Positions 33,132 through 59,371 are shown, counted from the stretch's first letter. The stretch is 64,000 nt of DNA from Patescibacteria group bacterium (GCA_040387855.1 JAZKCY010000001.1:317857-381856), one strand, 5' to 3'. The notes: generated from the sequence alone by a model not told the origin. Program-made: numbers and translations.

Positions 33132-33932
33132 ATGGCACGCACGTATATCGAGAGTCTCGAGAATCGAAGCCATCTTTCTGGTACCTTTGAGGTGTCGGGC
33201 CTGGGTACAACGTACGTGGGCAGGATCAAGATCGAGGTTGAGATCGGTACGGTGACGATCACGGGGACCAAAGGCCCCGACGTGATCGACGCCAAGGTCG
33301 TGAGCGGTAAGAACGCAAGCACGCTCGAGGTCAACGGCAAGAAGGTCACTGTTCCTGCCCGCTTCCACTCCTTCATCATGAAGGGGATGCTCGGCAAGGA
33401 CGACATGACGCTCAACACCCGGGGGTTCCTTCGGAACGAGACGTTGACGTTGATCTACGGCGACGACCCCGACAACTACGAGGTGGGGAGTGCCGACACG
33501 ATCCGTGGCTACTTCGACGGCGAAGGCCTCATCGAGGCTGGCGCAGGTGACGACTTCGTTACTGGCATCGGCCAGCCTGCTACCGGCTTCGGTCGCGTCG
33601 TAAACTTCAACGGTGGCTCGGGCAACGACGTCATTCTCGGTACGTCCGGGGACGACATCCTTACCGGTGGCACTGGCAAGAACAAGATCTATGGCCTGGG
33701 TGGCAACGACATCCTGGTCAGCGAAGGTGGCTTCGACGAGTTGTGGGGAGGGGCCGGCGACGACCAGCTCTTCACAACTGCGAACTACCTCACCACGGGC
33801 CCGACCGTTAGTGGGCTCTTCCGTGGAGGTCCTGGGATCGATCTTGTCGTGGTCTACGATGTGATCGATCCGTCGATCCTCGACTATCTCGACACTCGTA
33901 CCGTGGAGGACATCTACTTCACGTTTGGCTAA
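33132..33932 (+). CDS. secreted RTX-like (beta-roll, GGxGxD nonapeptide repeat) protein, paralog 1, high-GC
   Basis: N-terminal YIESLENRSHLS motif; repeats GGSGNDVILGTSGDDILTGGTGKNKIYGLGGNDILVSEGGFDELWGGAGDDQLF; track ORF 33114, ATG at 33132. Confidence 0.55.
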   Translation: MARTYIESLENRSHLSGTFEVSGLGTTYVGRIKIEVEIGTVTITGTKGPDVIDAKVVSGKNASTLEVNGKKVTVPARFHSFIMKGMLGKDDMTLNTRGFLRNETLTLIYGDDPDNYEVGSADTIRGYFDGEGLIEAGAGDDFVTGIGQPATGFGRVVNFNGGSGNDVILGTSGDDILTGGTGKNKIYGLGGNDILVSEGGFDELWGGAGDDQLFTTANYLTTGPTVSGLFRGGPGIDLVVVYDVIDPSILDYLDTRTVEDIYFTFG

Positions 33933-33967
33933 TAACAAGGTCAATAGAACATTAATGTACATCAACA

Positions 33968-34002
33968 CAGCATATCCTCATGAGGGGAGATGCTGTTTTT
34001 TA
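33968..34002 (+). terminator. rho-independent terminator in the AT-rich spacer between RTX-like genes
   Basis: cagcatatcctc-atg-aggggagatgctg followed by ttttttatt. Confidence 0.55.
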
Positions 34003-34161
34003 TTGTCTATAGTAACTATTTATACTACACCATATGCTTGACTTTTAATCTAATATATGCTATTATACACAACGAATGACCCCGCGTGTGCGGAGGTCTA
34101 TGTTCCCAGAGATTTGGCAAGTTTGCCATTCTCAGTCTGATTTCACTCTCGGAGACTCGAA

Positions 34162-35139
34162 ATGTCCAACATCCTCAGCCTCATCGTCGCTTCCGTCAAG
34201 AAGGCCCTCACCCCCGCCAACAACCCGATCGCACAGGCCATCCGGCCCGTCGTGATCGAGAAGATGGAAGGGCGGACCCTCTTCGCGGTCGCGCCGGCCC
34301 CGATCGAGATGCCGTCGATCAGCGTCGACCTGTTCAACGGGTCGATCAACGTCAACGGCACCAGCAAGTCCGACACCGTCAAGGTGTTCGGGCGAGTGGT
34401 CACCAAGACCGTCAACACCGACATGGGACTCGTCTCGTTCCCGGTGCTGAAGGCCGACTTCGTCGTCAACGGCATGTTGTTCTCCTACACGGGGGCCAAC
34501 AGCAGCGAGTGGTTCACCGTGAACACCGGCGCCGGCAACGACGTGGTGGAGGTGAGCATCGTGACCGGAGGTGCCTTCGGGTACTACGCCGGGTTGATCA
34601 ACACGGGCGCCGGTCTCGACAAGGTCCTCCTCAACCAGGCGGACCAGAGCGTGACCGTCGACACCGGCAACGACGCCGACTACGTGAAGGAGCTCGACGA
34701 CCCCAACAAGGCCCGTCACAACATCCTTCTCGGCAGCGGCAACGACGTCGCGGTGGTCGTGGACGACTACGTCGACGCCGGCAGCGGTGACGACAAGGTC
34801 TACGCGGCCCACAGCATCTTCGCCAACCCGAAGGACAACTTCGGTTCCGTGATCTACGCCGGCGACGGCAACGACACGGTCTACGGCGGTACCGGCGATG
34901 ACTTCATCTCCGGTGGCCGCGGCAAGGACACGATGTTCGCCGGGCTCGGGAACGACACGTTCCTGTACAACGCGTACGAGGTGAAGGACCCGGACAACGC
35001 CAACGGCGGCGCCGGTACCGACTCGGCCGTGCAGTACATCGACATCTCGCGTGGCGAGACGTTGGTGAAGTACCCCGGCATCTTCTCGAGCGTCGAGATC
35101 AAGACGTCGTACAAGTTCGACGGCAACAGCAAGGGCTGA
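34162..35139 (+). CDS. secreted RTX-like repeat protein, paralog 2, high-GC
   Basis: N-terminal VIEKMEGRTLFAVAPAP motif; repeats GSGNDVAVV, GSGDDKVYA, GDGNDTVYGGTGDDFISGGRGKDTMFAGLGNDTF. Confidence 0.55.
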   Translation: MSNILSLIVASVKKALTPANNPIAQAIRPVVIEKMEGRTLFAVAPAPIEMPSISVDLFNGSINVNGTSKSDTVKVFGRVVTKTVNTDMGLVSFPVLKADFVVNGMLFSYTGANSSEWFTVNTGAGNDVVEVSIVTGGAFGYYAGLINTGAGLDKVLLNQADQSVTVDTGNDADYVKELDDPNKARHNILLGSGNDVAVVVDDYVDAGSGDDKVYAAHSIFANPKDNFGSVIYAGDGNDTVYGGTGDDFISGGRGKDTMFAGLGNDTFLYNAYEVKDPDNANGGAGTDSAVQYIDISRGETLVKYPGIFSSVEIKTSYKFDGNSKG

Positions 35140-35213
35140 ACAAGCCCCGGCTAGAACGACAACGGACATACCAAGTACCTTAAACTAGTGCGAGTCACAC
35201 GGCTCACAAGCAC

Positions 35214-35249
35214 GACGGCGATCTCTATGAGGTCGCCGTTTACATTTTT
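35214..35249 (+). terminator. rho-independent terminator in AT-rich spacer
   Basis: acggcga-tctctatgagg-tcgccgt followed by ttacattttt. Confidence 0.5.
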
Positions 35250-35307
35250 GGATGATTTTGAATATAAATTACTTGCCATAAATCATATTATATGGTATTT
35301 TCTTTTT

Positions 35308-35333
35308 AGAAAGGCGCCACGTTGTGTGGCGCT
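35308..35333 (+). promoter_or_regulatory. GC-rich hairpin in the AT-rich 5' region of RTX paralog 3, followed by short direct repeats
   Basis: aggcgccac-gttgt-gtggcgctt; then ggtagtac-tgc-ggtagtac and aatctag-aatctag direct repeats before the start codon. Confidence 0.25.
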
Positions 35334-35402
35334 TCGTCCGATAGGAAAGATTAAGGTAGTACTGCGGTAGTACCTCAATCTAGAATCTAGCAGGAGTGTT
35401 CT

Positions 35403-36335
35403 ATGTTTCTCTCCCAGATCAAGCAGCACCTCGTGTGCTCGATGGGTCTCACCAGCCGCGCCCCCAAGCGTGGTTCGGCTCCCAAGCGTCAGGCGCCGCC
35501 GGTTCGTCCGGTCGTCGAAACGCTCGAGAGCCTGCAGTACATGTCGGCGACGATCCATGACGTCAACGCCAACGGCGACGTCGTCGTTGAAGTCACGGGT
35601 GACGTCGGGTTCTCGAAGAGCTACACCGTGGTCACCGCGTCCAACAACGCGGATGGCATGGCGACGCTCACCGTCTCGCACGGGTACTTGAACCCCGTTG
35701 TCACCACATGGTCGGCCTCGGTCGACACCCCGATCTTCGGGGTCCTGATCCAAGGCGACGGCACCAACAACGAGATCTTCCTCAACGGGCAGACGTCGGT
35801 GTTCGGTGGAGCGCTGATCAGCGTGGACAGCGGAGATGGCAACGACCTGATCGGGGCCGCCGTCGACACCTCGGTGATGCTCAACGGTGGTGCCGGCAAC
35901 GACGGGATCATCTGCGGTGGCATGGCTGCCCTCGCCGAGGGCAGCAGCCCGGTTTTCATCTCCGGTGGCAGTGGCAACGACAACCTGCAGGGCAGTCAGG
36001 GCTTCGACGTCATCAACGGCGGCAGCGGCAACGACTACCTGCAGGGTAACACCGGCAACGATCAGCTCTTCGGCGGGTCGGGCAACGACCGGCTGTGGGG
36101 CAACCAGGGGGACGACTCCCTCAACGGCGGTGTCGGCGACGACTACCTGCGCGGCAACAGCGGCAACGACGTCTACTACCTCGACCTGACCTTCAGGTAC
36201 CAGGGCCGTGAGGTGTTGGATGACACCAGCGGCCGCGACTCGATCTACTACGCGAAGGACACCAACTTCAAGGACATGACGATCAAGGGCCGCTTCGAGG
36301 TCTACCGGCTCGTCCCGAATGCGCCCGGCGTTTGA
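35403..36335 (+). CDS. secreted RTX-like repeat protein, paralog 3, high-GC
   Basis: canonical nonapeptides GGSGNDYLQGNTGNDQLFGGSGNDRLWGNQGDDSLNGGVGDDYLRGNSGNDVYY; N-terminal basic region then VVETLESLQYMS. Confidence 0.6.
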   Translation: MFLSQIKQHLVCSMGLTSRAPKRGSAPKRQAPPVRPVVETLESLQYMSATIHDVNANGDVVVEVTGDVGFSKSYTVVTASNNADGMATLTVSHGYLNPVVTTWSASVDTPIFGVLIQGDGTNNEIFLNGQTSVFGGALISVDSGDGNDLIGAAVDTSVMLNGGAGNDGIICGGMAALAEGSSPVFISGGSGNDNLQGSQGFDVINGGSGNDYLQGNTGNDQLFGGSGNDRLWGNQGDDSLNGGVGDDYLRGNSGNDVYYLDLTFRYQGREVLDDTSGRDSIYYAKDTNFKDMTIKGRFEVYRLVPNAPGV

Positions 36336-36419
36336 GCAGTACTGAGCATGAGGCTCGGTCAAAGTGACCCTTGGGAAAGAGGATTTGTATGTACAACAAC
36401 GTGACAGGATGTCACATAA

Positions 36420-36460
36420 AGCAGCGACTTTGGGTAAAACCGGGTCGCTGCTTTCAATTT
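36420..36460 (+). terminator. rho-independent terminator after the RTX array
   Basis: 9-bp stem agcagcgac-tttgggtaaaaccgg-gtcgctgct followed by ttcaattttc. Confidence 0.6.
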
Positions 36461-36532
36461 TCATAAAATCATGGGTTTATAGTATAGTTATTTCTACGTG
36501 TGTTTTTATTTCAATAATTAGTTTTATAAAGT

Positions 36533-37342
36533 ATGGATTCTACAAAAACAGGAAGAGTGGAAGGGAAGATCGCCCTTGTCACAGGTGCTGCTGATGGAAT
36601 TGGAAAAGCTATTGCAACCAAGCTTGCAGCAGAAGGTGCTACAGTAATAGTTGCCGACATTAATGCAGAACTAGGAACTAAAACTGCAGAGGAATTACGT
36701 GGGGTTTTTATGTCTCTTGATGTGAGTAATGAAGGTGCATGGCAAGATGCAGCGAGCTACATAACTAAAAATTACGGGCATCTCAATATTTTAGTAAACA
36801 ATGCCGGTATCATTGGTAAGGGAGCTCAAGATCCTGAAAATGCATCACTTACTGATTGGCAGGTGATTCATAAAATAAATCTCGACAGTGTGTTTCTTGG
36901 GTGCAAATATGCTATTAAGCTTATGAAAGAAAAGGGAGGTTCTATTGTAAATATGTCATCACGATCAGGAATAGTAGGCGTGCCAGGAGCTGCTGCATAT
37001 GCTTCAACAAAAGCTGCTGTACGAAATCATACAAAATCTGTAGCGCTCTATTGTGCACAGCAAGGATATCCTATTCGATGTAACTCAGTCCATCCTGCAT
37101 CTATCCTCACTGCAATGTGGAAAAATATGTTGGGTGAAGGGGAAGCGTATACAGAAAATCTTAAAAAGTTTGCTAAAGATATTCCAATGCAGCGATTTGG
37201 TACTCCAGAGGAAGTAGCTGCTGCTGTTTTATTCTTGGCTTCTGATGAATCATCTTACACAACTGGATCAGAACTCAATGTAGATGGAGGAATTTTGGCC
37301 GGAACGACAACAAGCCCCGATACAGGGCTTGAGAAGAAGTAA
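36533..37342 (+). CDS. short-chain dehydrogenase/reductase (SDR) family oxidoreductase
   Basis: TGAADGIGKAIA (TGxxxGxG), NNAG, catalytic YASTKAAV. Confidence 0.8.
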   Translation: MDSTKTGRVEGKIALVTGAADGIGKAIATKLAAEGATVIVADINAELGTKTAEELRGVFMSLDVSNEGAWQDAASYITKNYGHLNILVNNAGIIGKGAQDPENASLTDWQVIHKINLDSVFLGCKYAIKLMKEKGGSIVNMSSRSGIVGVPGAAAYASTKAAVRNHTKSVALYCAQQGYPIRCNSVHPASILTAMWKNMLGEGEAYTENLKKFAKDIPMQRFGTPEEVAAAVLFLASDESSYTTGSELNVDGGILAGTTTSPDTGLEKK

Positions 37343-37354
37343 AAGAGTTAATTA

Positions 37355-37723
37355 TTATGCAGTAGGTGTAAGACTTTTTTCTACGACATCGAGAAGGTGT
37401 CGACTGCTAAAAGGTTTGGAAACAAAGGTGTTGACGCCATAGGCTTCAATGCCTTTTTCCATATTATGATTTGCCGAAATCATAATAATTGGAATAGCTT
37501 TGGTTTCATCTTTTGATTTAAGTTCTTTAGCAATTTCACGGCCGTCTAAACCAGCAAGCATAACATCCATGAGAATGAGATCAGGCTTAAATGTGTTTAC
37601 AAGTTCGATAGTCTCTTCTCCTTTAAGAGTATATTTGGTTTCGTATCCTGCATTTTTCAACACCATCTCGATTCCTTTGGTAATAGGAAGATCATCATCA
37701 ACCACAAGAATTTTCTTATTCAT
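37355..37723 (-). CDS. stand-alone response-regulator receiver (REC) domain protein
   Basis: KILVVDDD...DLILMDVMLAGLDGREIAKELK, no output domain; the ATG directly follows the TAA of the upstream ORF in the same frame. Confidence 0.8.
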   Translation of the reverse strand: MNKKILVVDDDLPITKGIEMVLKNAGYETKYTLKGEETIELVNTFKPDLILMDVMLAGLDGREIAKELKSKDETKAIPIIMISANHNMEKGIEAYGVNTFVSKPFSSRHLLDVVEKSLTPTA

Positions 37724-38014
37724 TTAATATCCGTATTGATTATATTTAAAACCCTGTATACTTCTATTTTCGCTGGAAGTATCCTTAATGTCAATAAGAC
37801 TCAGTTTTTCTCCACGAGCTGCTTTCTCCCATGACTTTCGGAAAAAGTCTTTTGTTAGTTCGATTGATTTACTTCGACTGTCTGTTTTCTCAAAAAACGT
37901 AGAGAAAACACTATCTGCAGTATCTTCATAGAATCGAAGGAATTTTTCTTGTGTATTTCTCATATATTCAGTATAGATGCTAGGTATGAAGATTAAATGA
38001 AGGGGTCTTAACAA
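37724..38014 (-). CDS. small hypothetical protein, possible sigma-70 region-2-like helical domain
   Basis: probable start at internal MRNTQEKF; segment DSVFSTFFEKTDSRSKSIELTKDFFRKSWEKA weakly resembles ECF sigma region 2 (..AEDLVQETFLKAW..); low confidence. Confidence 0.3.
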   Translation of the reverse strand: MLRPLHLIFIPSIYTEYMRNTQEKFLRFYEDTADSVFSTFFEKTDSRSKSIELTKDFFRKSWEKAARGEKLSLIDIKDTSSENRSIQGFKYNQYGY

Positions 38015-38022
38015 TAAATCTT

Positions 38023-38241
38023 CTAATCAAGTTTTTGTACTTCAGCTCTAAATTCCTCAAGCATTTCAAGCATTTTAGCTTGGGACTTATCAATATCTTC
38101 TAAAATTTCTTTTTGCTGAGGGGTAAGATCTCCTGCCATTCCACCAATGAGCATATCCAAAAAAAGCTTTGATGAGGCAAGGGGAGTTCGTAGCTCATGT
38201 GATAGGTGAGAGAACAATTTTTTTGCTGAAGAATCAGACAT
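38023..38241 (-). CDS. stand-alone HisKA (DHp) dimerisation/phosphoacceptor domain protein, no ATPase domain
   Basis: H-box LSHELRTPLASSKLFLDML in a 72-aa ORF; a HATPase_c domain is absent from every frame downstream. Confidence 0.5.
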   Translation of the reverse strand: MSDSSAKKLFSHLSHELRTPLASSKLFLDMLIGGMAGDLTPQQKEILEDIDKSQAKMLEMLEEFRAEVQKLD

Positions 38242-38596
38242 GTTTTTTGATTGTTATTAGTAGTGAATCTAGATTGAATGGCTTTGCTATAAAATCATCA
38301 GCACCTGCATCCTTAACCGATTGTTCAGCTCCTGGATGAGCCGACATCATAATAATTGGAATTTGCTGTGTGGCTTTCTGACTTTTAAGCTTTTTACATA
38401 TTTCGCGGCCGTCCTTACCAGAAAGGAGGATGTCGAGGAGTATGAGATCAGGAAGAGCTTTTTTGTTTTTTTCAATTGCCTCAATCTCTTCTGGGTGTTC
38501 TGCTGCCACAACTTCATATCCAGAATACTCAAGAGTAAAACGCATGGCTTCCATGATGCTGTGATCATCTTCAATTACCAGGATCTTTTTACTCAT
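38234..38596 (-). CDS. stand-alone response-regulator receiver (REC) domain protein
   Basis: KILVIEDDHSIMEAM...DLILLDILLSGKDGREICKKLK; internal Met (MSKKILVIED, at 38596) starts 7 nt after the kinase stop; track ORF extends to 38662. Confidence 0.8.
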   Translation of the reverse strand: MSKKILVIEDDHSIMEAMRFTLEYSGYEVVAAEHPEEIEAIEKNKKALPDLILLDILLSGKDGREICKKLKSQKATQQIPIIMMSAHPGAEQSVKDAGADDFIAKPFNLDSLLITIKKHV

Positions 38597-40223
38597 GTGT
38601 TTGTTTTGTGAAAGGCATAGTAAAGCAAAACTTTGATCCCTTTCCCTTAATACTTTTAACATCTATTTTGCCATGATGTCTTCGAACTATTTCGGAAGAT
38701 ATATAGAGTCCAATTCCGAGTCCAGGAAATGTACGTGCTTCCGGACCCGACACTCTATAAAAACGTGTAAAGATTTTCTTTTGCTGTTCTTTTGTGATGC
38801 CTATACCGTAGTCTTGAACAGTAATTTCTGCATTATGTTTTGTTTCACCAACATGAACAACTACTTTATGTGCCTCTGGTGAGTATTTTATCGCATTCGT
38901 TAGTAAATTTGTAATTACTTGTGCAATACGATATTTGTCACCCCATACTTTCTTTGTGAGAGTGCCTTTGATTGTAATCTTGTGTTGAATTGAACTTGCC
39001 TGAACACTTTCGATTGTATCTACAACAACTTCTTGTAAATCAAAAAATTCCTCATGAAATTCCAGCTTACCCAACTGTAATTTTGAAATATTGAGAAGAT
39101 CATCAATAAGCAGCGTGAGTTTATTAATTTGGGTTTCCATCTTTTTAAGTGGAATGATCATTTGATCTTCACCTTTTCGTTTCATCTGCTCTAGAATAAC
39201 CTGCGTGTACATTTTTAAAGAGGTGACTGGGGTTTTCAATTCATGACTTGCAACACTAATAAACTCATCACGAACTGAAACTGCTTTTTGAGATTCTGTA
39301 AACAAACGTGCATTGTGAATAGCGAGTGCCGCCCGAGCTGCAACTTCTTGTGCAACAGTGAGATCTGCTTGTGTATATTTTCGCCCCGATTCTGAATAAA
39401 TAAAACTGATTGCACCAACAGGCTTATCTTGAATGATAATTGGAAGCATCATCACCGACGATAGCTGAAGCTTGCGAGCAAGTTTAAGGTGTTCTTCATC
39501 TCGTGCAGAAGCGACAAGCATTTCATCAGTAATAACTGGATAAAATTGTGTTTCACCCTTAGTAAGTACTTTAGTAAGTCCATTAGTCTCATCATTAATA
39601 TCAGGTGGATCTTTTTTGTTGAGTTCAATAGCCCATTTTACTTTTTTGGGGTCTATGTGGGCTACAGCCAATCTATGTATTTGATTATCGGCAGTAAGCA
39701 TATCTACTGCACACCAATCGGCAATCTCAGGTACACCAAGATCCGCAACAGCTTTGAGTGTTTTATTGTAATCAAGTGATGAAGATAATACTTTACTCAC
39801 TTGAGCTAAGTATGAAAGATTTGATTCCACTTGTTTTCGTTCTGTAATATCGATATTAACTCCAATAACCCGAATTGCTTTTTTCTTTGCATTGCGAACT
39901 ATTTTTGCTCGAGTCATCAGATGGTGAACACTTTTATCAGGCCAGATCACTCTGAATTCAATATTAAGTTCATTTTCGTGTTTCAATCCATATGCTGTTG
40001 CATCAGCAACTTTCTTCTTATCCTCAGGGTGAAGTAGTTTTGACCATTCGACGCTATTTTTTCCTTTAAAACCGCCATTTGGAAAGCCATAGAGGGCTTC
40101 AAAACCCTTTGACCATGTTGATATTCCTTTTACAAGATCCCATTCAAAAGTACCAATTTTTCCGGCTTTTTGAATAAATTCATCTTGATCTATGTGGTTT
40201 TGTTCCAAATGTGATGAGGACAT
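38589..40223 (-). CDS. cytoplasmic sensor histidine kinase, PAS-GAF-HisKA-HATPase_c
   Basis: PAS (GTFEWDLVKG...), GAF-like region, H-box SHELKTPVTSLKMY, G-boxes GIGITKEQQKKIF / GLGIGLYIS; probable start MSSSHLEQ at 40223 (track 40289 uses upstream GTG). Confidence 0.8.
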   Translation of the reverse strand: MSSSHLEQNHIDQDEFIQKAGKIGTFEWDLVKGISTWSKGFEALYGFPNGGFKGKNSVEWSKLLHPEDKKKVADATAYGLKHENELNIEFRVIWPDKSVHHLMTRAKIVRNAKKKAIRVIGVNIDITERKQVESNLSYLAQVSKVLSSSLDYNKTLKAVADLGVPEIADWCAVDMLTADNQIHRLAVAHIDPKKVKWAIELNKKDPPDINDETNGLTKVLTKGETQFYPVITDEMLVASARDEEHLKLARKLQLSSVMMLPIIIQDKPVGAISFIYSESGRKYTQADLTVAQEVAARAALAIHNARLFTESQKAVSVRDEFISVASHELKTPVTSLKMYTQVILEQMKRKGEDQMIIPLKKMETQINKLTLLIDDLLNISKLQLGKLEFHEEFFDLQEVVVDTIESVQASSIQHKITIKGTLTKKVWGDKYRIAQVITNLLTNAIKYSPEAHKVVVHVGETKHNAEITVQDYGIGITKEQQKKIFTRFYRVSGPEARTFPGLGIGLYISSEIVRRHHGKIDVKSIKGKGSKFCFTMPFTKQTHE

Positions 40224-40274
40224 ATACGTAGTCTTTAGACATTGGCATAATACAGTATGGGCTGATACAAGTAA

Positions 40275-40303
40275 ATAAAAACTCCCCACTTGGGGAGTTT
40301 TTG
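40275..40303. terminator. bidirectional rho-independent terminator
   Basis: aaactcccc-actt-ggggagttt flanked by A and T runs. Confidence 0.65.
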
Positions 40304-40307
40304 AAAT

Positions 40308-40433
40308 TTATTCAGATTCTTCTTCAGAATCTTGTTCTTCTGTTGGAGCTTGTGTTCCTCCACTATGTGATGCTTTTTGTTCGTCTTTAGAACCTCCTTT
40401 TGAATTTGAGTTAGAATCTCGATTTGATGCCAT
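40308..40433 (-). CDS. small hydrophilic Ser/Glu-rich protein (about 41 aa), not in ORF track
   Basis: manual translation MASNRDSNSNSKGGSKDEQKASHSGGTQAPTEEQDSEEESE, directly followed by the terminator; coordinates approximate. Confidence 0.25.
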   Translation of the reverse strand: MASNRDSNSNSKGGSKDEQKASHSGGTQAPTEEQDSEEESE

Positions 40434-40605
40434 AAAATTATTTAAATTATGTTACTAATGAACACGCTTTTAATGACGGGCTAGTTTATAACTCCTTACT
40501 TTAATGTTGAGCTGTTTTCATAATTAGACAACACAAAATCTTGTTGAGCATAAGTCTAAACTATACTCTGTAAAAAATAAGCGGTTTCTGCGTCATAGAT
40601 AGCAC

Positions 40606-40794
40606 ATGGCGAACATAATTCTTTTATCTGGAATAGCAATTCTGTCTTTTATGCTTATATTTGTAGGCAATTTGTCACGTATCACAAGTGATATGGCTGT
40701 GGCACGTCCGGGCTATGCCTTCTATTTTCCAATCACAACAATGATGCTCATGAGCATCGTGCTATCATTTATTTTCTGGATTTTACGCCGATAG
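40606..40794 (+). CDS. small two-TM membrane protein
   Basis: 62-aa hydrophobic ORF immediately upstream of the YibE/F-like gene. Confidence 0.3.
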   Translation: MANIILLSGIAILSFMLIFVGNLSRITSDMAVARPGYAFYFPITTMMLMSIVLSFIFWILRR

Positions 40795-40812
40795 TCGTCT
40801 ACTATAGAACGT

Positions 40813-41958
40813 ATGTATAAAAAATTGCTCATCATTGGTGTTGCTGCTCTTTGTATGAGTTTGTTTGGTGTAGTTCAGATTCATGCTCAAGAAGAGTCTT
40901 CAGATGTGCAGGGTGTATGGAAAGCAAAAGTACTTGAGGTTACAAACCAGGAAACACGACTCGTTCCAGGTACTGATACACAGTCTACCTACCAAACTCT
41001 ACAAGTAGAAGTTTTGGAAGGGGAAAGAAAAGGCCAGATTATAACTATAGAAAATGATTTCCTAAAATTAGAAAAAGGGGATGCTTTCTTTATGAATTAT
41101 CTGAAGAAAGCAGATGGAACAGAATTATATTCTGTACGCGACATTGAGCGAAGGCCAACCATCTATTTTCTTATCGCACTTTTTGTTGCTGTGATAATCT
41201 CATTTGGCGGCAGACAGGGGATCCGCTCTTTAATTAGTCTTGCTGGTAGTTTACTTATTATTTTATATGTTTTATTGCCTGCGCTATTAAAAGGATACAA
41301 CCCCGTACTTATGAGTACTCTCATTGCTACATGTATTTTGTTTTTAGCAATTTATTTTACACATGGATTTAACAAGGAATCTACAGCTGCATTTCTAGGT
41401 ACTGTAATAGCAATTGTTGTAACTGGAATTCTTGCATCTCTTGCTGTGAGTGCTGCAAGCCTATCTGGCTTTGCTTCAGATGAGTCAGTGTTTCTAAATC
41501 TCACAACGAGGGGTACATTAAATATGCAGGGACTCTTATTGGGTGCAATCATTATTGGAGTGCTTGGAGTTCTTGATGATATCGCAATTACACAGGCGAC
41601 CGTTGTGAGAGAATTATATGGCACCGCACCACATTTAAAAAGATTGGAAATATACAAAATTGCAATTCGTGTAGGGAAAGAACACGTTGGAGCATTGGTA
41701 AACACACTTGCTCTTGCATATACAGGCGCGTCGCTACCGTTACTACTATTGTTCTCTTCAGGAAGTACATCTGTATCCATGATTTTAAATTATGAAATTT
41801 TTGCGACAGAAGTTATTCGAACAATTATAGGTAGTATCGGACTCATACTCACAGTTCCGATAGTAACTGGCTTAGCTGTTGTGCTCCTCGAGAAGACAAG
41901 AGGACAAAAGCCTCACCATGCACACGGTCACAGCCATTCTCATAATCACGTGCATTAG
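40813..41958 (+). CDS. YibE/F-like multi-TM membrane protein with His-rich C-terminal tail
   Basis: signal/TM, soluble N-domain, about 8 TM helices, C-terminus HHAHGHSHSHNHVH. Confidence 0.45.
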   Translation: MYKKLLIIGVAALCMSLFGVVQIHAQEESSDVQGVWKAKVLEVTNQETRLVPGTDTQSTYQTLQVEVLEGERKGQIITIENDFLKLEKGDAFFMNYLKKADGTELYSVRDIERRPTIYFLIALFVAVIISFGGRQGIRSLISLAGSLLIILYVLLPALLKGYNPVLMSTLIATCILFLAIYFTHGFNKESTAAFLGTVIAIVVTGILASLAVSAASLSGFASDESVFLNLTTRGTLNMQGLLLGAIIIGVLGVLDDIAITQATVVRELYGTAPHLKRLEIYKIAIRVGKEHVGALVNTLALAYTGASLPLLLLFSSGSTSVSMILNYEIFATEVIRTIIGSIGLILTVPIVTGLAVVLLEKTRGQKPHHAHGHSHSHNHVH

Positions 41959-41992
41959 TGTATACTAGTAAAGTACTTATTAAACAAATTAC

Positions 41993-42145
41993 ATGGCATC
42001 AATAGCATATTGCATGAAGTGCAAAGAAAAGCGGGATATGAAAGATGAGAAGGAGGTAGAAATGAAAGGTGGCCGACGAGCATTACAGGGAGTATGTTCA
42101 AAGTGTGGCACTAAAATGTTTAAGATCTTAGGTAAGGCAAAATAA
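41993..42145 (+). CDS. small zinc-ribbon protein (about 50 aa), not in ORF track
   Basis: manual translation MASIAYCMKCKEKRDMKDEKEVEMKGGRRALQGVCSKCGTKMFKILGKAK with CxxC...CxxC; followed by a terminator. Confidence 0.4.
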   Translation: MASIAYCMKCKEKRDMKDEKEVEMKGGRRALQGVCSKCGTKMFKILGKAK

Positions 42146-42169
42146 ACATTGAGATAGTAAAAATAAAAA

Positions 42170-42200
42170 GCACCCCGAAAATCTCGAGGGTGTTTTTTAT
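42170..42200 (+). terminator. rho-independent terminator
   Basis: gcaccccga-aaatc-tcgagggtg followed by ttttttatt. Confidence 0.55.
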
Positions 42201-42258
42201 TGCCCAGATTGACTCTAAACTAATTGTGTCCTGTCACACATTTTTTCGAAAGATAGAG

Positions 42259-42279
42259 ATACTTAAGCGTCTTAAGTAT
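42259..42279. promoter_or_regulatory. 9-3-9 perfect inverted repeat, candidate operator upstream of the CHRD gene
   Basis: ATACTTAAG-cgt-CTTAAGTAT about 50 nt upstream of the 42328 start. Confidence 0.3.
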
Positions 42280-42327
42280 TATCGTAAACATGATTGTTTA
42301 TAGATTTTAAAAATAGAATTTTAAATT

Positions 42328-43200
42328 ATGACTAAAAAATTATTATCAGGAATGCTTGTTGTTACTTTGCTTGCTGCTGGAACAGCTGTAGCAACAGCTG
42401 ATACTTCAATGCATGGTTCAACAACAATGCAGACTCATTCAATTATGGTAGGTGATTATAAACATACGTTTAGTGCAAATCTTTCTGGAGGAATGGAAGT
42501 GCCACCTGTAACTACTCAGGGAATGGGTACTAGTGAATTTCATGTGTCAGGAGATGAGCGAACGATTCACTATAAGCTAGGAGTACACAATCTTTCATCT
42601 CCAGTTACAGGAGCTCATCTTCATTGCGCACCTATGGGACAAAATGGGCCTGTTGTTGTTCCATTAGCAAATCCAATGGGATCAACGACACATATGATGT
42701 CTGAAGGAATGATTACTGAATCTCAAATAACAGCAGCATCAGCAGCATGTAGTCCAAATATTCGCACCGCATCACATCTAGTACAGGCAATGCGGGAAGG
42801 ACAGATGTATGTAAATGTTCATACTGAATTACATCCCAGCGGCGAAGTGAGAGGTCAATTAATGCTTCAAGATGGAAAGGCAAGTCCAGTATATTCTCAT
42901 GATGATCATATGAAAATGTATAAAGATGGATACTCTATGATGAAAGAAGGTTATTCTTGGATGAGTAATCCAGACAAAATGTACGAAGGATATATGATGA
43001 TGCACAAGGGCTATATGCATATGCATGATTCATACAAGCACGTTGATGCTGATCATCATGCAATGATGACAGAGGCTCATACTTGGATGCTCAGTGCACA
43101 TCAAAAGATGCTCGATCATTATAATGCAATGCACAATTCTCTTATGATGCATTCACCAATGATGCATGCAACGTCTACTGCCACAACAACATCAATGTAG
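42328..43200 (+). CDS. secreted CHRD-domain protein with Met/His-rich C-terminal tail
   Basis: signal peptide; CHRD-like LSGGMEVPPVTTQGMGTSEFHV ... VHNLSSPVTGAHLHCAPMGQNGPVVVPL; tail MMKEGYSWM, MMMHKGYMHMHDSYKH, MMHSPMMH. Confidence 0.6.
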   Translation: MTKKLLSGMLVVTLLAAGTAVATADTSMHGSTTMQTHSIMVGDYKHTFSANLSGGMEVPPVTTQGMGTSEFHVSGDERTIHYKLGVHNLSSPVTGAHLHCAPMGQNGPVVVPLANPMGSTTHMMSEGMITESQITAASAACSPNIRTASHLVQAMREGQMYVNVHTELHPSGEVRGQLMLQDGKASPVYSHDDHMKMYKDGYSMMKEGYSWMSNPDKMYEGYMMMHKGYMHMHDSYKHVDADHHAMMTEAHTWMLSAHQKMLDHYNAMHNSLMMHSPMMHATSTATTTSM

Positions 43201-50869: not shown

Positions 50870-50884
50870 TGTGGTGTAGTTGGG

Positions 50885-54285: not shown

Positions 54286-54293
54286 AAAACACC

Positions 54294-54803
54294 TCAAGGA
54301 ACTTGATCCTTGGGTGCATTATCAGACAAAGGATTTGCCTTTGTCTGATTTTGTTGTGGGGAACTACTTGGGTAGCAGAGGAAAATTGCAGCAACTATCG
54401 CTGCAGAAAATCCCACTGCTTGCATCCATGTGATTCCGCGGTTGACGATGATCGAATAGATCGCCGGTGGGCATGTTTGGGCGACGAGCATCACTACAAA
54501 AAGAATACCCACTTTTGCAGGCATAGCTTCGGATAGCAATGTGTTGAAGATCACCACGCCTCCGGTTGCGATCACTGCAGCAATGATGGTCATTGTCCAG
54601 TTGGCACGGTAGAGCGAACTTGTATCCATCAGTGCCGGAGTGATCAAGAGCGTAAGCTGAATACAGCTCACAACCACACACGTTACAAATCCAGATAGAT
54701 TGCTCTTGTTCATGAACAATGGCCAGATGCCGAAGAGCAATCCCGCTGCGATGGCCATGATTTGATGTTTCATCTCCACAGACTCCACAAAGACTCGGAA
54801 CAT
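54294..54803 (-). CDS. small 4-5-TM membrane protein, intermediate GC
   Basis: hydrophobic ORF; about 48% GC, higher than the flanks; overlapping alternative-frame ORF 54364..54843 considered less likely. Confidence 0.35.
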   Translation of the reverse strand: MFRVFVESVEMKHQIMAIAAGLLFGIWPLFMNKSNLSGFVTCVVVSCIQLTLLITPALMDTSSLYRANWTMTIIAAVIATGGVVIFNTLLSEAMPAKVGILFVVMLVAQTCPPAIYSIIVNRGITWMQAVGFSAAIVAAIFLCYPSSSPQQNQTKANPLSDNAPKDQVP

Positions 54804-54872
54804 GACGCTCAGCGTAAATTACCACTATGAAGTAGTTTGTCAATTAACACATAATGCTATACTTATGTATAT

Positions 54873-55343
54873 ATGATAAAGAATAATAAAACAGCGTTTA
54901 TAATTGGCGGGTCTATTATAGGGGGAATCATTATTGGATGTATTATTTGTTGTCTCATGATGATGTGTATGGGAGGAGGAATGATGAATCGTCATATGAA
55001 GATGAAAGGAATGTATTCTCAGAACATGAATGGAATGCACATGATGCCTGATGGAACAATGATGCCAAATGCAGGAGCTGTACCACCACGTGATACTCCT
55101 GGCATGCAAGGAATGATGGATCATATGAATGCAAATCTCGAAGGAAAAACAGGGGATGCATTTGATCAAGCGTTCTTAGAAGAAATGATTGTGCATCATG
55201 AAGGGGCAGTAGAAATGGCAGAAGCTGCATTAACGAATGCAAAGCATCCTGAAATCAAAAAGCTTTCTCAAGATATAATTACTGCTCAGAAGAAAGAAAT
55301 TGCAGATATGAAAGCATGGCTAAAAGCTTGGTATAACAAATAA
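54873..55343 (+). CDS. DUF305-family protein with N-terminal TM anchor and Met-rich segment
   Basis: DUF305-like FLEEMIVHHEGAVEMA and ITAQKKEIADMKAWL; N-terminal MMMCMGGGMMNRHMKMKGMYSQNMNGMHMMPDGTMMP. Confidence 0.6.
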   Translation: MIKNNKTAFIIGGSIIGGIIIGCIICCLMMMCMGGGMMNRHMKMKGMYSQNMNGMHMMPDGTMMPNAGAVPPRDTPGMQGMMDHMNANLEGKTGDAFDQAFLEEMIVHHEGAVEMAEAALTNAKHPEIKKLSQDIITAQKKEIADMKAWLKAWYNK

Positions 55344-55355
55344 AAATCTAAAGTA

Positions 55356-55382
55356 AAAAACCACCCTATGGTGGTTTTTTAC
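55356..55382 (+). terminator. rho-independent terminator
   Basis: aaccacc-ctat-ggtggtt followed by tttttt. Confidence 0.65.
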
Positions 55383-55405
55383 TTCTCAACTCCTACAACA
55401 TCTTG

Positions 55406-55894
55406 TTAAACAGAGTACATTTTTTGTAGTTTTTCAATATCTTTATAAATATAGGAATCTGATGGAAGAGAAAATAATTCTACATCTAGCTTTGTACTTG
55501 TATCTGAAAATATTTTCTGTAACGCCATAAGTCTGCCATTACCTTCAAATGACATATAGCCATCTTTGTAGGGAATAATTTGAATTGGGCTTACAGAGGG
55601 CATTATTTCTATGAGCTGATCATTTGATATAGTCTCATCATTCAAAACCATAGTATCTTTTATATCAGAAAGTGCCTTCACTCTAAGATCAATTTTATCT
55701 AGTGCTGATTTTCTATTTATCGGGTGAATGAGAATAATAGAATGTATAGGTACTGATGTAAAAGTTCGTAAGGTGGCTTTGCGGGTAATATCAAGAACGA
55801 TTTTTGCAAGTAATGCATCGCTAAGTGAGAGGTGACGTAATTCAGGGGTTTTATGTAGAAGCCATTTTCGGAACCGGTTTAGTCGATGAATCAT
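55406..55894 (-). CDS. hypothetical protein
   Basis: 162-aa ORF, no recognisable domain. Confidence 0.4.
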   Translation of the reverse strand: MIHRLNRFRKWLLHKTPELRHLSLSDALLAKIVLDITRKATLRTFTSVPIHSIILIHPINRKSALDKIDLRVKALSDIKDTMVLNDETISNDQLIEIMPSVSPIQIIPYKDGYMSFEGNGRLMALQKIFSDTSTKLDVELFSLPSDSYIYKDIEKLQKMYSV

Positions 55895-55975
55895 AGTTGT
55901 AGTATAGCAAAAATATTACTTTTTCAAGATCATACTAGGGTGTCATAAAGCCTCAGCATTTTCGTCTCTAGATAT

Positions 55976-56221
55976 ATGTCAGACACAACAAAACTAACAA
56001 AAGTTGAAGCGTACCTTTCAAACGAACGTACACTACTCTCTTATATGCGAACAGCAGCATCAGTGGCTGTACTTGCTGTTGCAATGTTTAAGTTTTTTGA
56101 AGATGAATGGGTGATCTATTTAGGATTTGCTGTGTTACTACTTGGAGTTGGCGTATTTGTTTTGGGTACCTATAGATTTATTCAGGGAAGAAAACGAATT
56201 AATTCGATTACTACTTCGTAA
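55976..56221 (+). CDS. DUF202 (YidH-like) small membrane protein
   Basis: LSNERTLLSYMRTAASV signature and two TM helices. Confidence 0.6.
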   Translation: MSDTTKLTKVEAYLSNERTLLSYMRTAASVAVLAVAMFKFFEDEWVIYLGFAVLLLGVGVFVLGTYRFIQGRKRINSITTS

Positions 56222-56699
56222 GCCCAGCAAGTACTTCATCTAGTCGCTCATGTCCTTCTACAACTCCGTGCTCCATTCCAGACTGAATCATTCCATCGCG
56301 ATCAGTTTGTGTTGAAAACACGGATGTCCCAACAACTCGAGTTCTGTTTCCAGGAAGACTTTCAAATCGAGCTGTTTCTAATGCAACATGACCTCGTTCT
56401 GGAAGACCTTCAAATTCAAATGTTCCCACAAGCAATTCTGGGGTTTTCATGTAGTGGGTGACACCGTTAAATGCATAAGCATTACCCTGAGGATCTTTTG
56501 AAATATATCTCCATGAACCTCCATTTTTTGCTTCAAATTTTTCAATTTCCATACTCATACCTCGAGGACCTACCCATTGTTTGTACAAATCAGCTTCTGT
56601 ATATGCTCTAAATACTAAATCTCGTGGTGCATCAAATTCTCGAGTGATTATTATACTTAGTTGTCCTGGTTCTGCTACTATTGTTGTTTTATTAGCCAT
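56211..56699 (-). CDS. SRPBCC-superfamily protein, AHSA1 (activator of Hsp90 ATPase)-like
   Basis: IITREFDAPRDLVFRAYTEADLYKQWVGP; 8-nt overlap with the upstream ArsR gene. Confidence 0.7.
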   Translation of the reverse strand: MANKTTIVAEPGQLSIIITREFDAPRDLVFRAYTEADLYKQWVGPRGMSMEIEKFEAKNGGSWRYISKDPQGNAYAFNGVTHYMKTPELLVGTFEFEGLPERGHVALETARFESLPGNRTRVVGTSVFSTQTDRDGMIQSGMEHGVVEGHERLDEVLAGLTK

Positions 56700-57033
56700 A
56701 ATGTTTTTTCTTTAATTTTTCTAATACCTCATCTAAGCGCTCAAATTTTTCCTCCCATATCTTTCTATACTCCTCTATATATTCATATGCAAACTTCATC
56801 GCAGGAGGGGAGAGAGCAATATATTGATGCGTACCTTCACGTCGCTTTTCTATTAAATGTGCTTTTGCTAATACTTGAATATGTTTAGAGACTGCAGCAA
56901 GTGTGAGATCATATCGTTCTGCGAGTTCATTCACAGATAGTTCTTTCTTGGCTACGCGCTTTAATATATCTCGACGGGTGGGATCCGCGAGGGAATAAAA
57001 GATACGATCAATGTCTAATTTATATTCAACCAT
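56692..57033 (-). CDS. ArsR/SmtB-family transcriptional regulator
   Basis: FYSLADPTRRDILKRVAKKELSVNELAERYDLTLAAVSKHIQVLAKAHLI. Confidence 0.75.
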   Translation of the reverse strand: MVEYKLDIDRIFYSLADPTRRDILKRVAKKELSVNELAERYDLTLAAVSKHIQVLAKAHLIEKRREGTHQYIALSPPAMKFAYEYIEEYRKIWEEKFERLDEVLEKLKKKHYG

Positions 57034-57087
57034 TTAGTTGAATAATATACTATATGAGTTTTTATGTCAAATAAAAAACCGACATGG

Positions 57088-57852
57088 TCAGAGGATCTGA
57101 TTCATGCCGGCAACGGTGATCTTGAGGTTTTCGTACAGCCCGGGCACACCAACTGTGCTGTAGGATTGGCCATCTGGAGCAATGAACACGAGGTCACAGT
57201 CGCATACGAGCTCATTGCAGCCCGGGCAGGTTTGGTAGCGATCAAACACCTCCTGCTCGAGATCGATACCACGCACGTATGCGAGCGTGAGTAGCCAGCT
57301 GAGTACATCTGCAGCTTCGAGCTCAGACTGGTGATCTGCCATACCACCACGAAGAGGTGTATGTGGGCCTCTCGACTGGATGATGCTCAGTTCACCGACT
57401 TCGCTTACGAGCCTGCCGTAGATCTTCCAGAACTTGTCGCCCTGAAGGTGTCGCCAGCCGTAGACGGTCTTGAGGTGCTCTTGCCACCGTCTCAACGTCC
57501 AGCCGCGCTGCTCATCATGCAGCTTGTAATCCTTTGGGTCGGGACGGGTTGCATCATTGCAGTCGCAGGGCATGTGCGTGCAGTACAAGCAGCCATACGG
57601 CGGGAACTTGTACATCATCCCGCGCTCAAGGTCGACGCGACCATTGAAGAAATTGACTACGTTGTAGAAGTAGCTGACACTTCTCGCAAGTCGTCCGGGC
57701 AGGCGCTCGCTTTTCCGCTCCGCATCAGCGATCTTGCCGACGCGGTAGATCATATGGCCTGCACGTTCCGGGAACGAACCTCCGGTGTGTTGAACACGAC
57801 GGTTGTACATCCGGTTGAAATGGTTCTGCAGTCCGAGAATGGTGGTTTCCAT
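57088..57852 (-). CDS. Cys-rich protein with C-terminal MazG-like nucleotide pyrophosphohydrolase motifs, encoded in a high-GC island
   Basis: LVSEVGELSII and ELEAADVLSWLLTLAYVRGIDLEQEV match the MazG E-x-x-E-x-G-E-L / E-x-x-D-x-L pattern; CxxC pairs CLYCTHMPCDC and CPGCNELVCDC; about 60% GC. Confidence 0.4.
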   Translation of the reverse strand: METTILGLQNHFNRMYNRRVQHTGGSFPERAGHMIYRVGKIADAERKSERLPGRLARSVSYFYNVVNFFNGRVDLERGMMYKFPPYGCLYCTHMPCDCNDATRPDPKDYKLHDEQRGWTLRRWQEHLKTVYGWRHLQGDKFWKIYGRLVSEVGELSIIQSRGPHTPLRGGMADHQSELEAADVLSWLLTLAYVRGIDLEQEVFDRYQTCPGCNELVCDCDLVFIAPDGQSYSTVGVPGLYENLKITVAGMNQIL

Positions 57853-57917
57853 GTGACGCGCTCCTACGTGGTGTTGTGGTCGTAGTACAGAAGAACGACG
57901 ATCGTTCTGTCGCTATA

Positions 57918-58721
57918 CTATTGCTGTGGGTACCAATTTGCAAGTACTACTTCAATATTTGAGTCTCCAGTATTTACAAGTGTTTTAAATTTAGCCACAT
58001 CTGCTAATCCATCTTGTCCGCGGTAGTGGTAGGGATATACGATCTTTGGTTTGAATGCGAGCACTGCTTGAGCTGCATCTTCAACACCCATAGTGAATGG
58101 AAGATTCATAGGAACAAATGCCATATCAATATCAGTGAGTGCTTTCATTTCTGGAGTTGGTCCGGTATCACCAGCAACATACACTCGGTAGCCATCTCGC
58201 TCAATTATGTATCCATTGCCTCGGCCTTTTGTATGTCTGCTATCTGTTGCTTCAGGATAGTTATACATAGGTACTGCGGTAATAGTGAAACCTTGTTCTG
58301 TTCGTGTCTGACCATTGTTCATTACAACTGCTCGTGATTTAAGATTTGCAGGAAGCAAATCAACTACTGCTTTTGGTGCGATAAGTGTAGAGCTGCCAAC
58401 GATAGTATTTAATGTACTGGTACTTAAGTGATCTCCATGGATATCAGTTACAAGAATGATATTTGGTGGTTGAATTCCTTGAAAGTTTGCTGCGCCACCC
58501 GTTGGATCCAAAAAGATATTTTTATTTGCCCAAGTGAGAACTCCGGTTGCATGTGAAAGCGGAATCACTGTTACAGGAACATTTTGTTGCTGTGTATTTC
58601 CTGTCTGATTGGTTGAGGTTGCTAACGGTTGAGTCCCATCTGTTGTTGTAGTTCTATTTAAAAGTGAAAACAAGGCGATTATTATAATAATTACTAAAAT
58701 TATGGGTATGATTCTTTTCAT
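57918..58721 (-). CDS. secreted MBL-fold metallo-hydrolase
   Basis: N-terminal TM/signal, HxHxDH motif in ILVTDIHGDHLS. Confidence 0.7.
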   Translation of the reverse strand: MKRIIPIILVIIIIIALFSLLNRTTTTDGTQPLATSTNQTGNTQQQNVPVTVIPLSHATGVLTWANKNIFLDPTGGAANFQGIQPPNIILVTDIHGDHLSTSTLNTIVGSSTLIAPKAVVDLLPANLKSRAVVMNNGQTRTEQGFTITAVPMYNYPEATDSRHTKGRGNGYIIERDGYRVYVAGDTGPTPEMKALTDIDMAFVPMNLPFTMGVEDAAQAVLAFKPKIVYPYHYRGQDGLADVAKFKTLVNTGDSNIEVVLANWYPQQ

Positions 58722-58799
58722 ATAAGTTCATTATACCAACTAGTAATAGGTCAACAATACTAAGACGTGTGAGAACTAAGAATCTGTATTTTTAAGTAT

Positions 58800-58826
58800 A
58801 AAAAAACCGTGTCGAAACACGGGTGT
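58800..58826 (-). terminator. rho-independent terminator (minus strand) after the high-GC gene 58859..59371
   Basis: ccgtgt-cgaa-acacgg hairpin with T-run on the minus strand (the plus strand shows the preceding A-run). Confidence 0.55.
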
Positions 58827-58858
58827 CATGAAATCTACGACAAGAACTGATGGTGCAC

Positions 58859-59371
58859 TTACGGCTTGATCCACACCGCAGTGGACTCTGCTGAGATCGT
58901 CGTTGATGTGCTACCAGTGGAGCTCACGGTTATGCGAACTCCCTGGCCGGTCACGCTGTAGACGCCACCTCTTTGGAAACCGCTAATGCTCTTGCTAACC
59001 GTGGTGTCGGTCGAGTAGACCTTGAACGTGGCAAGTGCCACTTGGCGCATAGTGCCAGTGGTTTGCTGTTGGCGGATCACCAGCCGAGTATGTGTGGCCC
59101 GAGGACCACTTGGGTTGATGGTGTAGGTGAACTTCACCGTCGCCGCACCCGTAAGCGTATTACGGGCGACGATCTGCCGCTGCAGGTAGAGCGGTGGTTG
59201 TACCCGCGTTACCGAGGTTGTGGTCACCGCTCTAAGGTTGTAGGTGTAAGCAGCCTGTGCCACCGAGTCGAGAATCGATGTCGCGCCTCCACCGAGGCCA
59301 ACCGACATCACAGTACGATTTTCGAGACATTCAACATACGGAAGCATGAAACGTAGTCCTTCTGCATGCAA
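58859..59371 (-). CDS. secreted Thr/Ser-rich protein with N-terminal LENR motif, encoded in a high-GC island
   Basis: TTG start; N-terminus MLPYVECLENRTVMSVGLGGG shares the LExRxxxS motif with the RTX-like paralogs; beta-rich TxT repeats; about 60% GC. Confidence 0.4.
   Translation of the reverse strand: MHAEGLRFMLPYVECLENRTVMSVGLGGGATSILDSVAQAAYTYNLRAVTTTSVTRVQPPLYLQRQIVARNTLTGAATVKFTYTINPSGPRATHTRLVIRQQQTTGTMRQVALATFKVYSTDTTVSKSISGFQRGGVYSVTGQGVRITVSSTGSTSTTISAESTAVWIKP

Follow-up and report, generated by a model that had tools for sequence, protein, structure and literature searches.

The N-terminal motif RRLxxExLExRxLLA is thought to be a novel export signal specific to planctomycetes (PMC8567305, citing Studholme et al. 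2004). In Planctomycetes it precedes many unrelated extracellular domains, and in Tuwongella immobilis it was recognized in 52 proteins (20 detected by proteomics, 8 only in the sodium dodecyl sulfate-soluble fraction) (PMC8567305). Planc_extracel, the name under which this leader is known in Pfam, is also listed among signal peptides (PMC10952558). The leader (ExLExR in short) is considered Planctomycetes-specific and has hardly been studied outside the phylum. In this study, we analysed a 64,000-nucleotide stretch of the genome of a Patescibacteria group bacterium (GCA_040387855.1 JAZKCY010000001.1:317857-381856; hereafter the window), in which four high-GC genes, three of them encoding tandem RTX proteins (RTX1, RTX2 and RTX3) and the fourth, at a second locus, a small orphan protein (P170), carry a motif resembling this leader at their 5' ends.

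Two other described systems are relevant here. The substrates of type I secretion (CyaA, serralysin/PrtC and lipases) share with the window RTX proteins the nonapeptide, Ca2+-binding beta-roll repeats and, weakly, the fold; however, the window proteins have no toxin or enzyme domain and no transporter genes nearby, and classical RTX proteins are devoid of the extra N-terminal leader. As for the host, transferred genes and islands originating from diverse donors are reported to constitute up to 13% of the genome in Patescibacteria (PMC12455944). The inserts of the window are similar to those transfers in being genes and islands individually gained, but the latter came mostly from Patescibacteria donors, with no Planctomycetota donor listed, whereas the inserts described here have the size of single transcription units, reach a GC content at third codon positions (GC3) of 0.94 and lack mobility genes.

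The explanation which we favour, with a probability of about 0.62, is that a real, although divergent, version of the known motif is present on genes that were all horizontally acquired, the RTX genes from a Planctomycetota-like source, and now reside in an unexpected host.

The N-terminal motif and the proteins carrying it

The motif had been proposed from the sequence alone (hereafter the sequence-only reading), and the four peptide strings quoted on that occasion were all found in the window (Table 1); the numbers attached to them (33132, 34162, 35403 and 58859) are boundaries of open reading frames (ORFs), not motif positions. The pattern given with the strings matches exactly these four sites, to which it had been fitted post hoc, and no other site in the six-frame translation. 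With the relaxed published consensus, E.[LM]E.R..[LMFIV][SA], three matches were obtained in the six-frame translation, against a mean of 0.057 (maximum 1 in 300) in residue shuffles of the six frames and 0.0008 in shuffles of the eight high-GC proteins. The motif is present in the window and its occurrence is non-random.

No copy extends beyond residue 50 of its ORF, and the GC3 of the four ORFs is 0.64-0.94; the first motif Glu is residue 7 in RTX1, 33 in RTX2, 39 in RTX3 and 6 in P170 (counted from the ATG at 59347; for this protein the extreme N-terminal location depends on the start codon chosen). The core consensus E-x-L-E-x-R-x-L-L-[AS] is followed by three proteins, namely RTX1 (ESLENRSHLS), RTX2 (EKMEGRTLFA) and P170 (ECLENRTVMS), while the RTX3 copy (ETLESLQYMS) is without the Arg. 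Basic residues before the motif are unevenly distributed: RTX3 has RAPKRGSAPKRQ, RTX2 has KK and one R, RTX1 a single R, and P170 none (or one R, if translated from the TTG start); a homologue from outside the window, P0132, likewise lacks a basic stretch.

A custom hidden Markov model (HMM) of the motif (16 columns, built of 13 non-window proteins only) was compared, using hmmsearch --max, with the 1040 stop-to-stop pieces of the window. Its top three matches were P170 (E 0.0034), RTX2 (E 0.0086) and RTX1 (E 0.33). The inclusion of the RTX3 copy rests on its position and on the 'RPVV-E' stretch that it has in common with RTX2.

In RTX1, the motif YIESLENRSHLSG is followed by VTITGTKGPDVIDAKV and then by the RTX repeats, and in RTX2 the order is VIEKMEGRTLFAV, INVNGTSKSDTVKV, a beta-rich domain and the RTX repeats. 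RTX3 begins with a basic, proline-rich region, RAPKRGSAPKRQAPPVRP, ahead of the degenerate motif VVETLESLQYMSA (Arg replaced with Leu), and shows no clear IxGTxxxDxIxV module. All three exceed the cut-off of PF00353 (GGxGxDxUx nonapeptides; 23 bits): RTX1 with 49 bits (E 5.8e-13), RTX2 with 42.6 bits (E 5.7e-11) and RTX3 with 63.5 bits (E 1.6e-17); their GC3 values are 0.77, 0.94 and 0.88, respectively. Sequence matches in the PDB are the beta-rolls of CyaA, a lipase and PrtC. In the AlphaFold2 (AF2) model of RTX2 (15-sequence alignment; mean predicted local distance difference test score (pLDDT) 67.7), a confident beta domain begins at residue 52 and the motif appears as an unstructured, low-confidence linker before it (pLDDT <50 for residues 33-41), which would be compatible with a targeting role and is no proof of one. 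A fold search with this model returned weak RTX beta-roll matches and nothing beyond.

P170 (GC3 0.64) may be read as a protein of 162 aa (from ATG 59347), 170 aa (from TTG 59371) or 149 aa (NCBI, from Met22). Its motif, VECLENRTVMSVG, is probably translated, since ATG 59347 has a Shine-Dalgarno sequence (AGAAGGA) at a distance of 9 nt on its upstream side and Met22 is without any. An exhaustive HMMER search revealed only weak homologues (P0127, E 1.1e-8, and P0128, E 4.2e-5), consisting of repeated beta-sandwich-like units, and no similarity between P170 and the RTX proteins was detected other than the motif. The single-sequence AF2 model of P170 was unusable (pLDDT 38.5).

Three antisense ORFs called opposite the RTX genes (minus strand, 33126-33968, 34132-35169 and 35283-36464; 270-280, 345 and 393 aa; called in place of the RTX genes by the Logan gene caller, L001) were rejected as artefacts due to open frames in high-GC DNA, because both the RTX matches and the high GC3 are on the plus strand and codon position 1 is the GC-rich one in the antisense frames.

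Resemblance to planctomycete leaders

The sequence-only reading had referred to a Pfam model for planctomycete extracellular proteins, and such a model exists: PF07595, 'Planc_extracel, Planctomycete extracellular' (20 positions; gathering cut-off 25.5 bits). It scored synthetic canonical peptides, used as the positive control, at 24.3 bits. The HMM search proposed as a check of the idea had a negative outcome: neither the four whole proteins nor their N-terminal peptides of 34-41 aa matched PF07595 at E<=10, and formal membership of the window motifs in this family fails.

A relation to the family is nevertheless suggested by sequences from outside the window. Eight of the 13 homologous N-termini match PF07595 at E<=0.15, these being P0129 (25.6 bits, the only one above the cut-off), P0026 (25.1), P0021 (24.1), P0070 (23.6), P0050 (21.6), P0130 (18.3), P0012 (12.6) and P0073 (12.3), and each of them scores higher than the window motifs. 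The core of P0129, IESLENR, is also that of RTX1, and the start of P0132 (MNIETMEGRTLFSV) can be compared with IEKMEGRTLFAV in RTX2. By way of this chain of intermediate sequences, the window motifs are connected, as divergent relatives, with true PF07595 leaders. A profile search of 5.8 billion proteins with the N-terminal module, limited by its word index, yielded 4 short fragments, and the N-termini of these were included in the scoring with PF07595.

The features shared with the PF07595 leader are the location in the first 50 residues, before extracellular-type domains (RTX), the lack of a hydrophobic signal-peptide core and, for all window proteins but RTX3, the core E-x-[LM]-E-x-R-x-x-[LMF]-[SA]. 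The differences concern the Arg-rich n-region, which RTX1 and P170 do not have, the 'LL' behind the Arg (replaced with HL, LF or VM), the Arg itself (Leu in RTX3) and the carrier, which is a member of the Patescibacteria and not of the Planctomycetota.

Ten of the best 120 RTX3 homologues contain E.[LMFIV][EQD].R..[LMFIV] within their first 90 residues. Among the 23 taxon-named RTX hits, it was found in both Planctomycetota proteins (P0021 and P0103) and in none of the 21 others, which belong to Proteobacteria, Cyanobacteria, Chloroflexi and Nitrospirae. One layout is common to several homologues: a basic N-terminus is followed by the motif and, some 10 residues later, by 'LxIxGTxxxDxIxV' and the RTX repeats. 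The E, R, G and T columns of their N-terminal modules are invariant. The gene for P0070 is placed on a 57%-GC contig and adjoins genes of the PSCyt1/PSCyt2/PSD1, DUF1501 and Sigma70_ECF families, which we take to be hallmarks of planctomycetes.

RTX1 and RTX2 agree with the Planctomycetota RTX proteins (such as P0021, P0103, P0070, P0050 and P0129) in the three parts of the layout (leader, IxGTxxxDxIxV module and GGxGxD repeats) and in their order, and RTX3 only in the leader position and the repeats. The gene GC of two Planctomycetota-like loci (L003 and L004; 0.57-0.59) is similar to that of the window genes (0.59-0.64). On the other hand, the identity is 22-34%, the Planctomycetota proteins are longer (400-540 aa versus 266-325 aa in the window) and richer in repeats, and no orthologue was identified. 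Of the Planctomycetes/Verrucomicrobia-like donor postulated in the sequence-only reading, the Planctomycetes side is backed by same-layout, PF07595-matching proteins named as, or placed among, Planctomycetota, and not by any donor homologue. From these sequence comparisons we infer that the source lineage of the RTX genes was Planctomycetota-like.

One further homologue, P0026 (L004, 5306-8119 and 10001-11554; 55%-GC contig), is encoded just downstream of an operon containing secretin and type II secretion system (T2SS) J/K genes, a neighbourhood that is a possible hint at the export route of ExLExR proteins.

Composition and boundaries of the high-GC genes

The window lies on a 981-kb contig (981,549 bp) of a Patescibacteria metagenome-assembled genome (MAG), with host genes of about 36% GC and GC3 of 0.17-0.36, and in this respect the host is the low-GC, small-genome bacterium that had been presumed. 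RTX3 is 100% identical to a protein encoded there (P0001), named 'MAG: calcium-binding protein [Patescibacteria group bacterium]' in NCBI, and RTX1, RTX2 and three other high-GC proteins also have exact NCBI entries (V4519_ locus tags). The GC content of about 60% ascribed to the unusual gene set was confirmed, as were its RTX repeats (PF00353) and PEP-CTERM protein (PF07589 and TIGR02595).

An atypical composition, with GC3 of 0.52-0.94, characterizes 12 genes of the window, compared with 0.17-0.36 in the other 42. At four-fold degenerate sites the high-GC genes reach 0.62-0.91, versus 0.18-0.22 in host genes (standard errors 0.02-0.05; values for particular genes are given in Table 1). Since the excess is found at third and four-fold positions, it reflects codon usage and not amino-acid content, and an amino-acid-driven GC bias was ruled out. 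A single donor of the whole set, suggested in the sequence-only reading, is not shown: the spread of four-fold-site GC is wide relative to the errors, which indicates several donors or different residence times, and no island gene had a close homologue in the databases searched. A preference for CTC over CTG is common to the high-GC genes and is compatible, weakly, with related donors.

The 12 genes (of about 54 in the window) form at least nine separate one- or two-gene segments among host genes. The resulting mosaic of single genes of foreign appearance is unusually dense, considering the genome size of about 1 Mb.

Only the transcribed units are high in GC. In the spacers separating RTX1, RTX2 and RTX3 the GC content drops to 0.32-0.37, while the lowest 100-nt values in two Planctomycetota-like loci are 0.37-0.39, and the spacers thus look host-like rather than donor-like. 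The GC content rises directly after the -10 box (33950-34100, 35200-35350, 59426-59454, 61148-61175 and 22630-22657). Each motif gene is preceded by its own AT-rich sigma-70-like promoter (Table 1), that of P170 overlapping the 3' end of the adjoining low-GC gene, and is bordered on its downstream side by low-GC sequence. The P170 promoter can be aligned with those of RTX2, RTX3 and the PEP-CTERM gene, and these with one another; a similar one is located before P619. Apart from the two hairpins listed in Table 1, intrinsic-terminator-like hairpins also follow RTX1 and P254. RTX3 and P170 have Shine-Dalgarno-like sequences ahead of them. An interpretation as integron cassettes was discarded: inspection by eye showed no attC-like RYYYAAC/GTTRRRY cores behind the genes, each gene has its own promoter and no repeated flanks were present.

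Phage origin found no support in PHROGs or tblastn searches against phages, and no Rfam families were detected. Neither RTX2 nor P254 had a match when GTDB genomes were scanned. A metagenome scan with MutS for a close relative retaining the empty site yielded relatives of at most 47% identity, with the exception of one 34-residue fragment (71%).

Table 1 Features of the window. Four-fold-site GC of 0.62-0.65 is the joint range of P255, P254, P170 and the PEP-CTERM gene.
Feature	Position	Strand	Four-fold-site GC	Description
High-GC3 gene	11483-12235
High-GC3 gene	16308-16925	+		205-aa product
P255 gene	19814-20581	-	0.62-0.65	255-aa lipoprotein
P619 gene	20614-22473	-	0.74	619-aa membrane protein
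RTX1-RTX3	33132-36335			high-GC3 segment
RTX1 promoter	33029-33057	+		sigma-70-like, AT-rich; TTGCTA-17-TATAGT, 9/12 matches
RTX1	33132-33932	+	0.70	266-aa calcium-binding RTX protein, MES2436743.1
RTX1 motif	33144-33182	+		YIESLENRSHLSG
RTX2 promoter	34038-34066	+		sigma-70-like, AT-rich, extended -10; TTGACT-17-TATTAT, 10/12, TG present
RTX2	34162-35139	+	0.91	325-aa RTX protein, MES2436744.1
RTX2 motif	34252-34290	+		VIEKMEGRTLFAV
Hairpin after RTX2	35214-35249	+		terminator-like; 12-bp stem, 7 GC pairs, then T-run TACATTTTTG
RTX3 promoter	35273-35301	+		sigma-70-like, AT-rich; TTGCCA-17-TATTTT, 9/12, TG present
RTX3	35403-36335	+	0.86	310-aa RTX protein
RTX3 motif	35511-35549	+		VVETLESLQYMSA
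High-GC3 gene	54294-54803
P254 gene	57088-57852	-	0.62-0.65	254-aa product
Hairpin after P170	58800-58822	-		terminator-like; CCGTGTTTCGACACGG, then T-run TTTTTTT
P170	58859-59347	-	0.62-0.65	orphan beta-rich protein
P170 motif	59335-59297	-		VECLENRTVMSVG
P170 promoter	59426-59454	-		sigma-70-like; TTGAGA-17-TATTGT, TG present
Zinc-ribbon ORF	60101-60259	-		52-aa product
PEP-CTERM gene	60432-61088	-	0.62-0.65	PF07589 21.9 bits (cut-off 20.7); TIGR02595 24.6 (cut-off 16)

Alternative explanations and accompanying genes

In the favoured explanation, the four proteins would begin with a divergent form of the planctomycete leader (RRLxxExLExRxLLA, PF07595), three of them being tandem, independently transcribed RTX beta-roll proteins and the fourth an unrelated small beta-rich orphan. 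In the donor lineage the leader would serve as an unstructured N-terminal targeting peptide for export or surface localisation, whereas in the recipient it may either still be used, by some route, or be decaying. The four proteins cannot simply be called secreted, as was done in the sequence-only reading: a hydrophobic signal peptide is absent from all four N-termini (maximum 12-residue hydropathy 0.77-1.9, versus 2.64 in the lipoprotein P255).

Several results weigh against this explanation. To the negative outcome with PF07595 must be added the behaviour of RTX3: owing to the Leu in place of the Arg, its copy ranked 28th with the custom HMM (E 20) and has no significance of its own. As the three RTX genes are tandem paralogues, with 22-31% identity, the window contains effectively two independent occurrences of the motif. 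For one of these, P170, the start annotated by NCBI (Met22) excludes the motif. The databases searched yielded neither a close homologue nor a donor for any of the island genes (the best non-self matches of RTX3 share 30-34% identity over 74-87% of the length), and P170 is an orphan. The inserts in the window are not accompanied by a tRNA, an integrase or flanking repeats. The annotated genes of the window include none for a type I ABC transporter, a membrane-fusion protein or an outer-membrane component. Finally, the export role of the motif is, even for Planctomycetes, a proposal of the literature (PMC8567305).

The alternative which survives best, although we regard it as rather unlikely, is that the leader is a non-functional relic that arrived recently from a high-GC diderm and is now decaying, the proteins being cytoplasmic, unexpressed or otherwise exported; a monoderm-like Patescibacterium without the matching machinery could not use leader, RTX or PEP-CTERM signals. 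Several observations are compatible with decay: the window motifs score below all PF07595-matching homologues, the Arg has been lost in RTX3, RTX1 and P170 are without the basic n-region, the window contains no genes for type I secretion, exosortase or other secretion functions, and the nearly unameliorated GC3 (0.88-0.94) argues for a short residence. Continued use is favoured by the intact ORFs, the four host-type promoters, the hairpins after RTX1, RTX2 and P170 and the Shine-Dalgarno-like sequences of RTX3 and P170, all of which would suggest functional integration. Moreover, the core E-x-L-E-x-R is intact in three of the four proteins, and the statement on secretion genes applies to the window, within a genome of 981 kb. 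If the motif were merely a relic, the case would be one of ordinary, though vivid, horizontal transfer.

It is considerably less probable that the resemblance is coincidental or convergent, i.e. that ExLExR is a cap conserved at the N-terminus of a particular RTX subfamily, P170 being a chance match. Such a view could be based on the shortness of the motif, the lack of PF07595 matches (shared by 5 of the 13 motif-bearing N-termini from outside the window), the paralogy of the three RTX copies and the dissimilarity of P170 in all other respects. However, the expectation is 0.06 matches per window and 0.0008 in the high-GC proteins, compared with the 3 observed; P170 is the top match of a model trained without it; and the 8 of 13 homologous N-termini that do match PF07595 include one with the identical IESLENR. 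The fact that the planctomycete motif precedes many unrelated extracellular domains (PMC8567305) also fits its presence on the unrelated P170.

The metagenomic source of the genome raises the question of assembly. A Logan contig (run SRR26324620) shows 100% identity to a 19,091-bp part of the window (23896-42986), including the RTX island, and a second one matches the host/island junction near 19.8 kb; the assembly of the same run is interrupted within a high-GC gene, from about 21.1 kb to 23.9 kb, and, as it may share reads with the MAG, it is no independent sample. An origin of the high-GC genes as artefacts of assembly or binning, formed by chimeric joins with a co-occurring high-GC organism, is hardly credible despite this break and the possibly shared reads, since at least nine segments each return to host sequence (a chimera would switch once and not about 18 times), promoters and terminators mark the places of the switches, P254 is separated by 65 bp from an upstream low-GC gene of the same strand, and two assemblers gave identical sequences for the RTX island as well as for the 19.8-kb junction.

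The favoured explanation of acquired Planctomycetota-like genes may be extended by the idea that the Patescibacterium repeatedly captured single transcription units from a physically associated high-GC Planctomycetota-like organism, possibly its host; the captured units would be mostly surface proteins with the donor leader, RTX and PEP-CTERM sorting signals. We consider this extension doubtful. If it were true, the host of an uncultured epibiont would have left its fingerprint in the genome in the form of the leader motif, and the promoter-to-terminator precision, with GC rising after a native -10 box and falling at a terminator, would indicate that capture followed an unusual mechanism or that deletional trimming was very strong. 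The identification of the hosts of Patescibacteria is a long-standing problem, for which the motif genes offer a testable clue to the DNA-exchange partner of this uncultured, probably host-dependent bacterium. They also constitute a natural experiment, in which a planctomycete leader either works in a very different envelope or decays there. The wider pattern is maybe more unusual than the motif: about one fifth of the window genes are foreign single-gene units, and most of those examined have a native-looking promoter.

The PEP-CTERM protein (GC3 0.68) has a classical signal peptide, lacks ExLExR and stands outside the motif family; no exosortase gene was found within the window. Between its gene and that of a DUF1761 protein lies an unlisted ORF for a zinc-ribbon protein (CPNPRC...CIYC; GC3 0.60), preceded by a Shine-Dalgarno-like AAAGGAG and followed by a T-run.

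P254 contains two Cys clusters (CLYCTHMPCDC and CPGCNELVCDC) and has no Pfam match, its C-terminal half being weakly MazG-like (PDB 1vmg, E 0.007). The upstream low-GC gene encodes a metallo-beta-lactamase-fold protein, with which P254 may be co-transcribed, given the 65-bp gap and the common strand. P255 and P619 are an orphan pair, the former having a Gly/Asn/Gln-rich tail and the latter being proline-rich; the Logan assembly break falls in the P619 gene, where GC reaches 0.74. The 205-aa product of the gene at 16308-16925 is Cys-rich (GC3 0.74), with a faint match to Pro_CA_2 (carbonic-anhydrase-like), and this gene is located between low-GC genes for a Na+/H+ exchanger and a SulP/STAS transporter.

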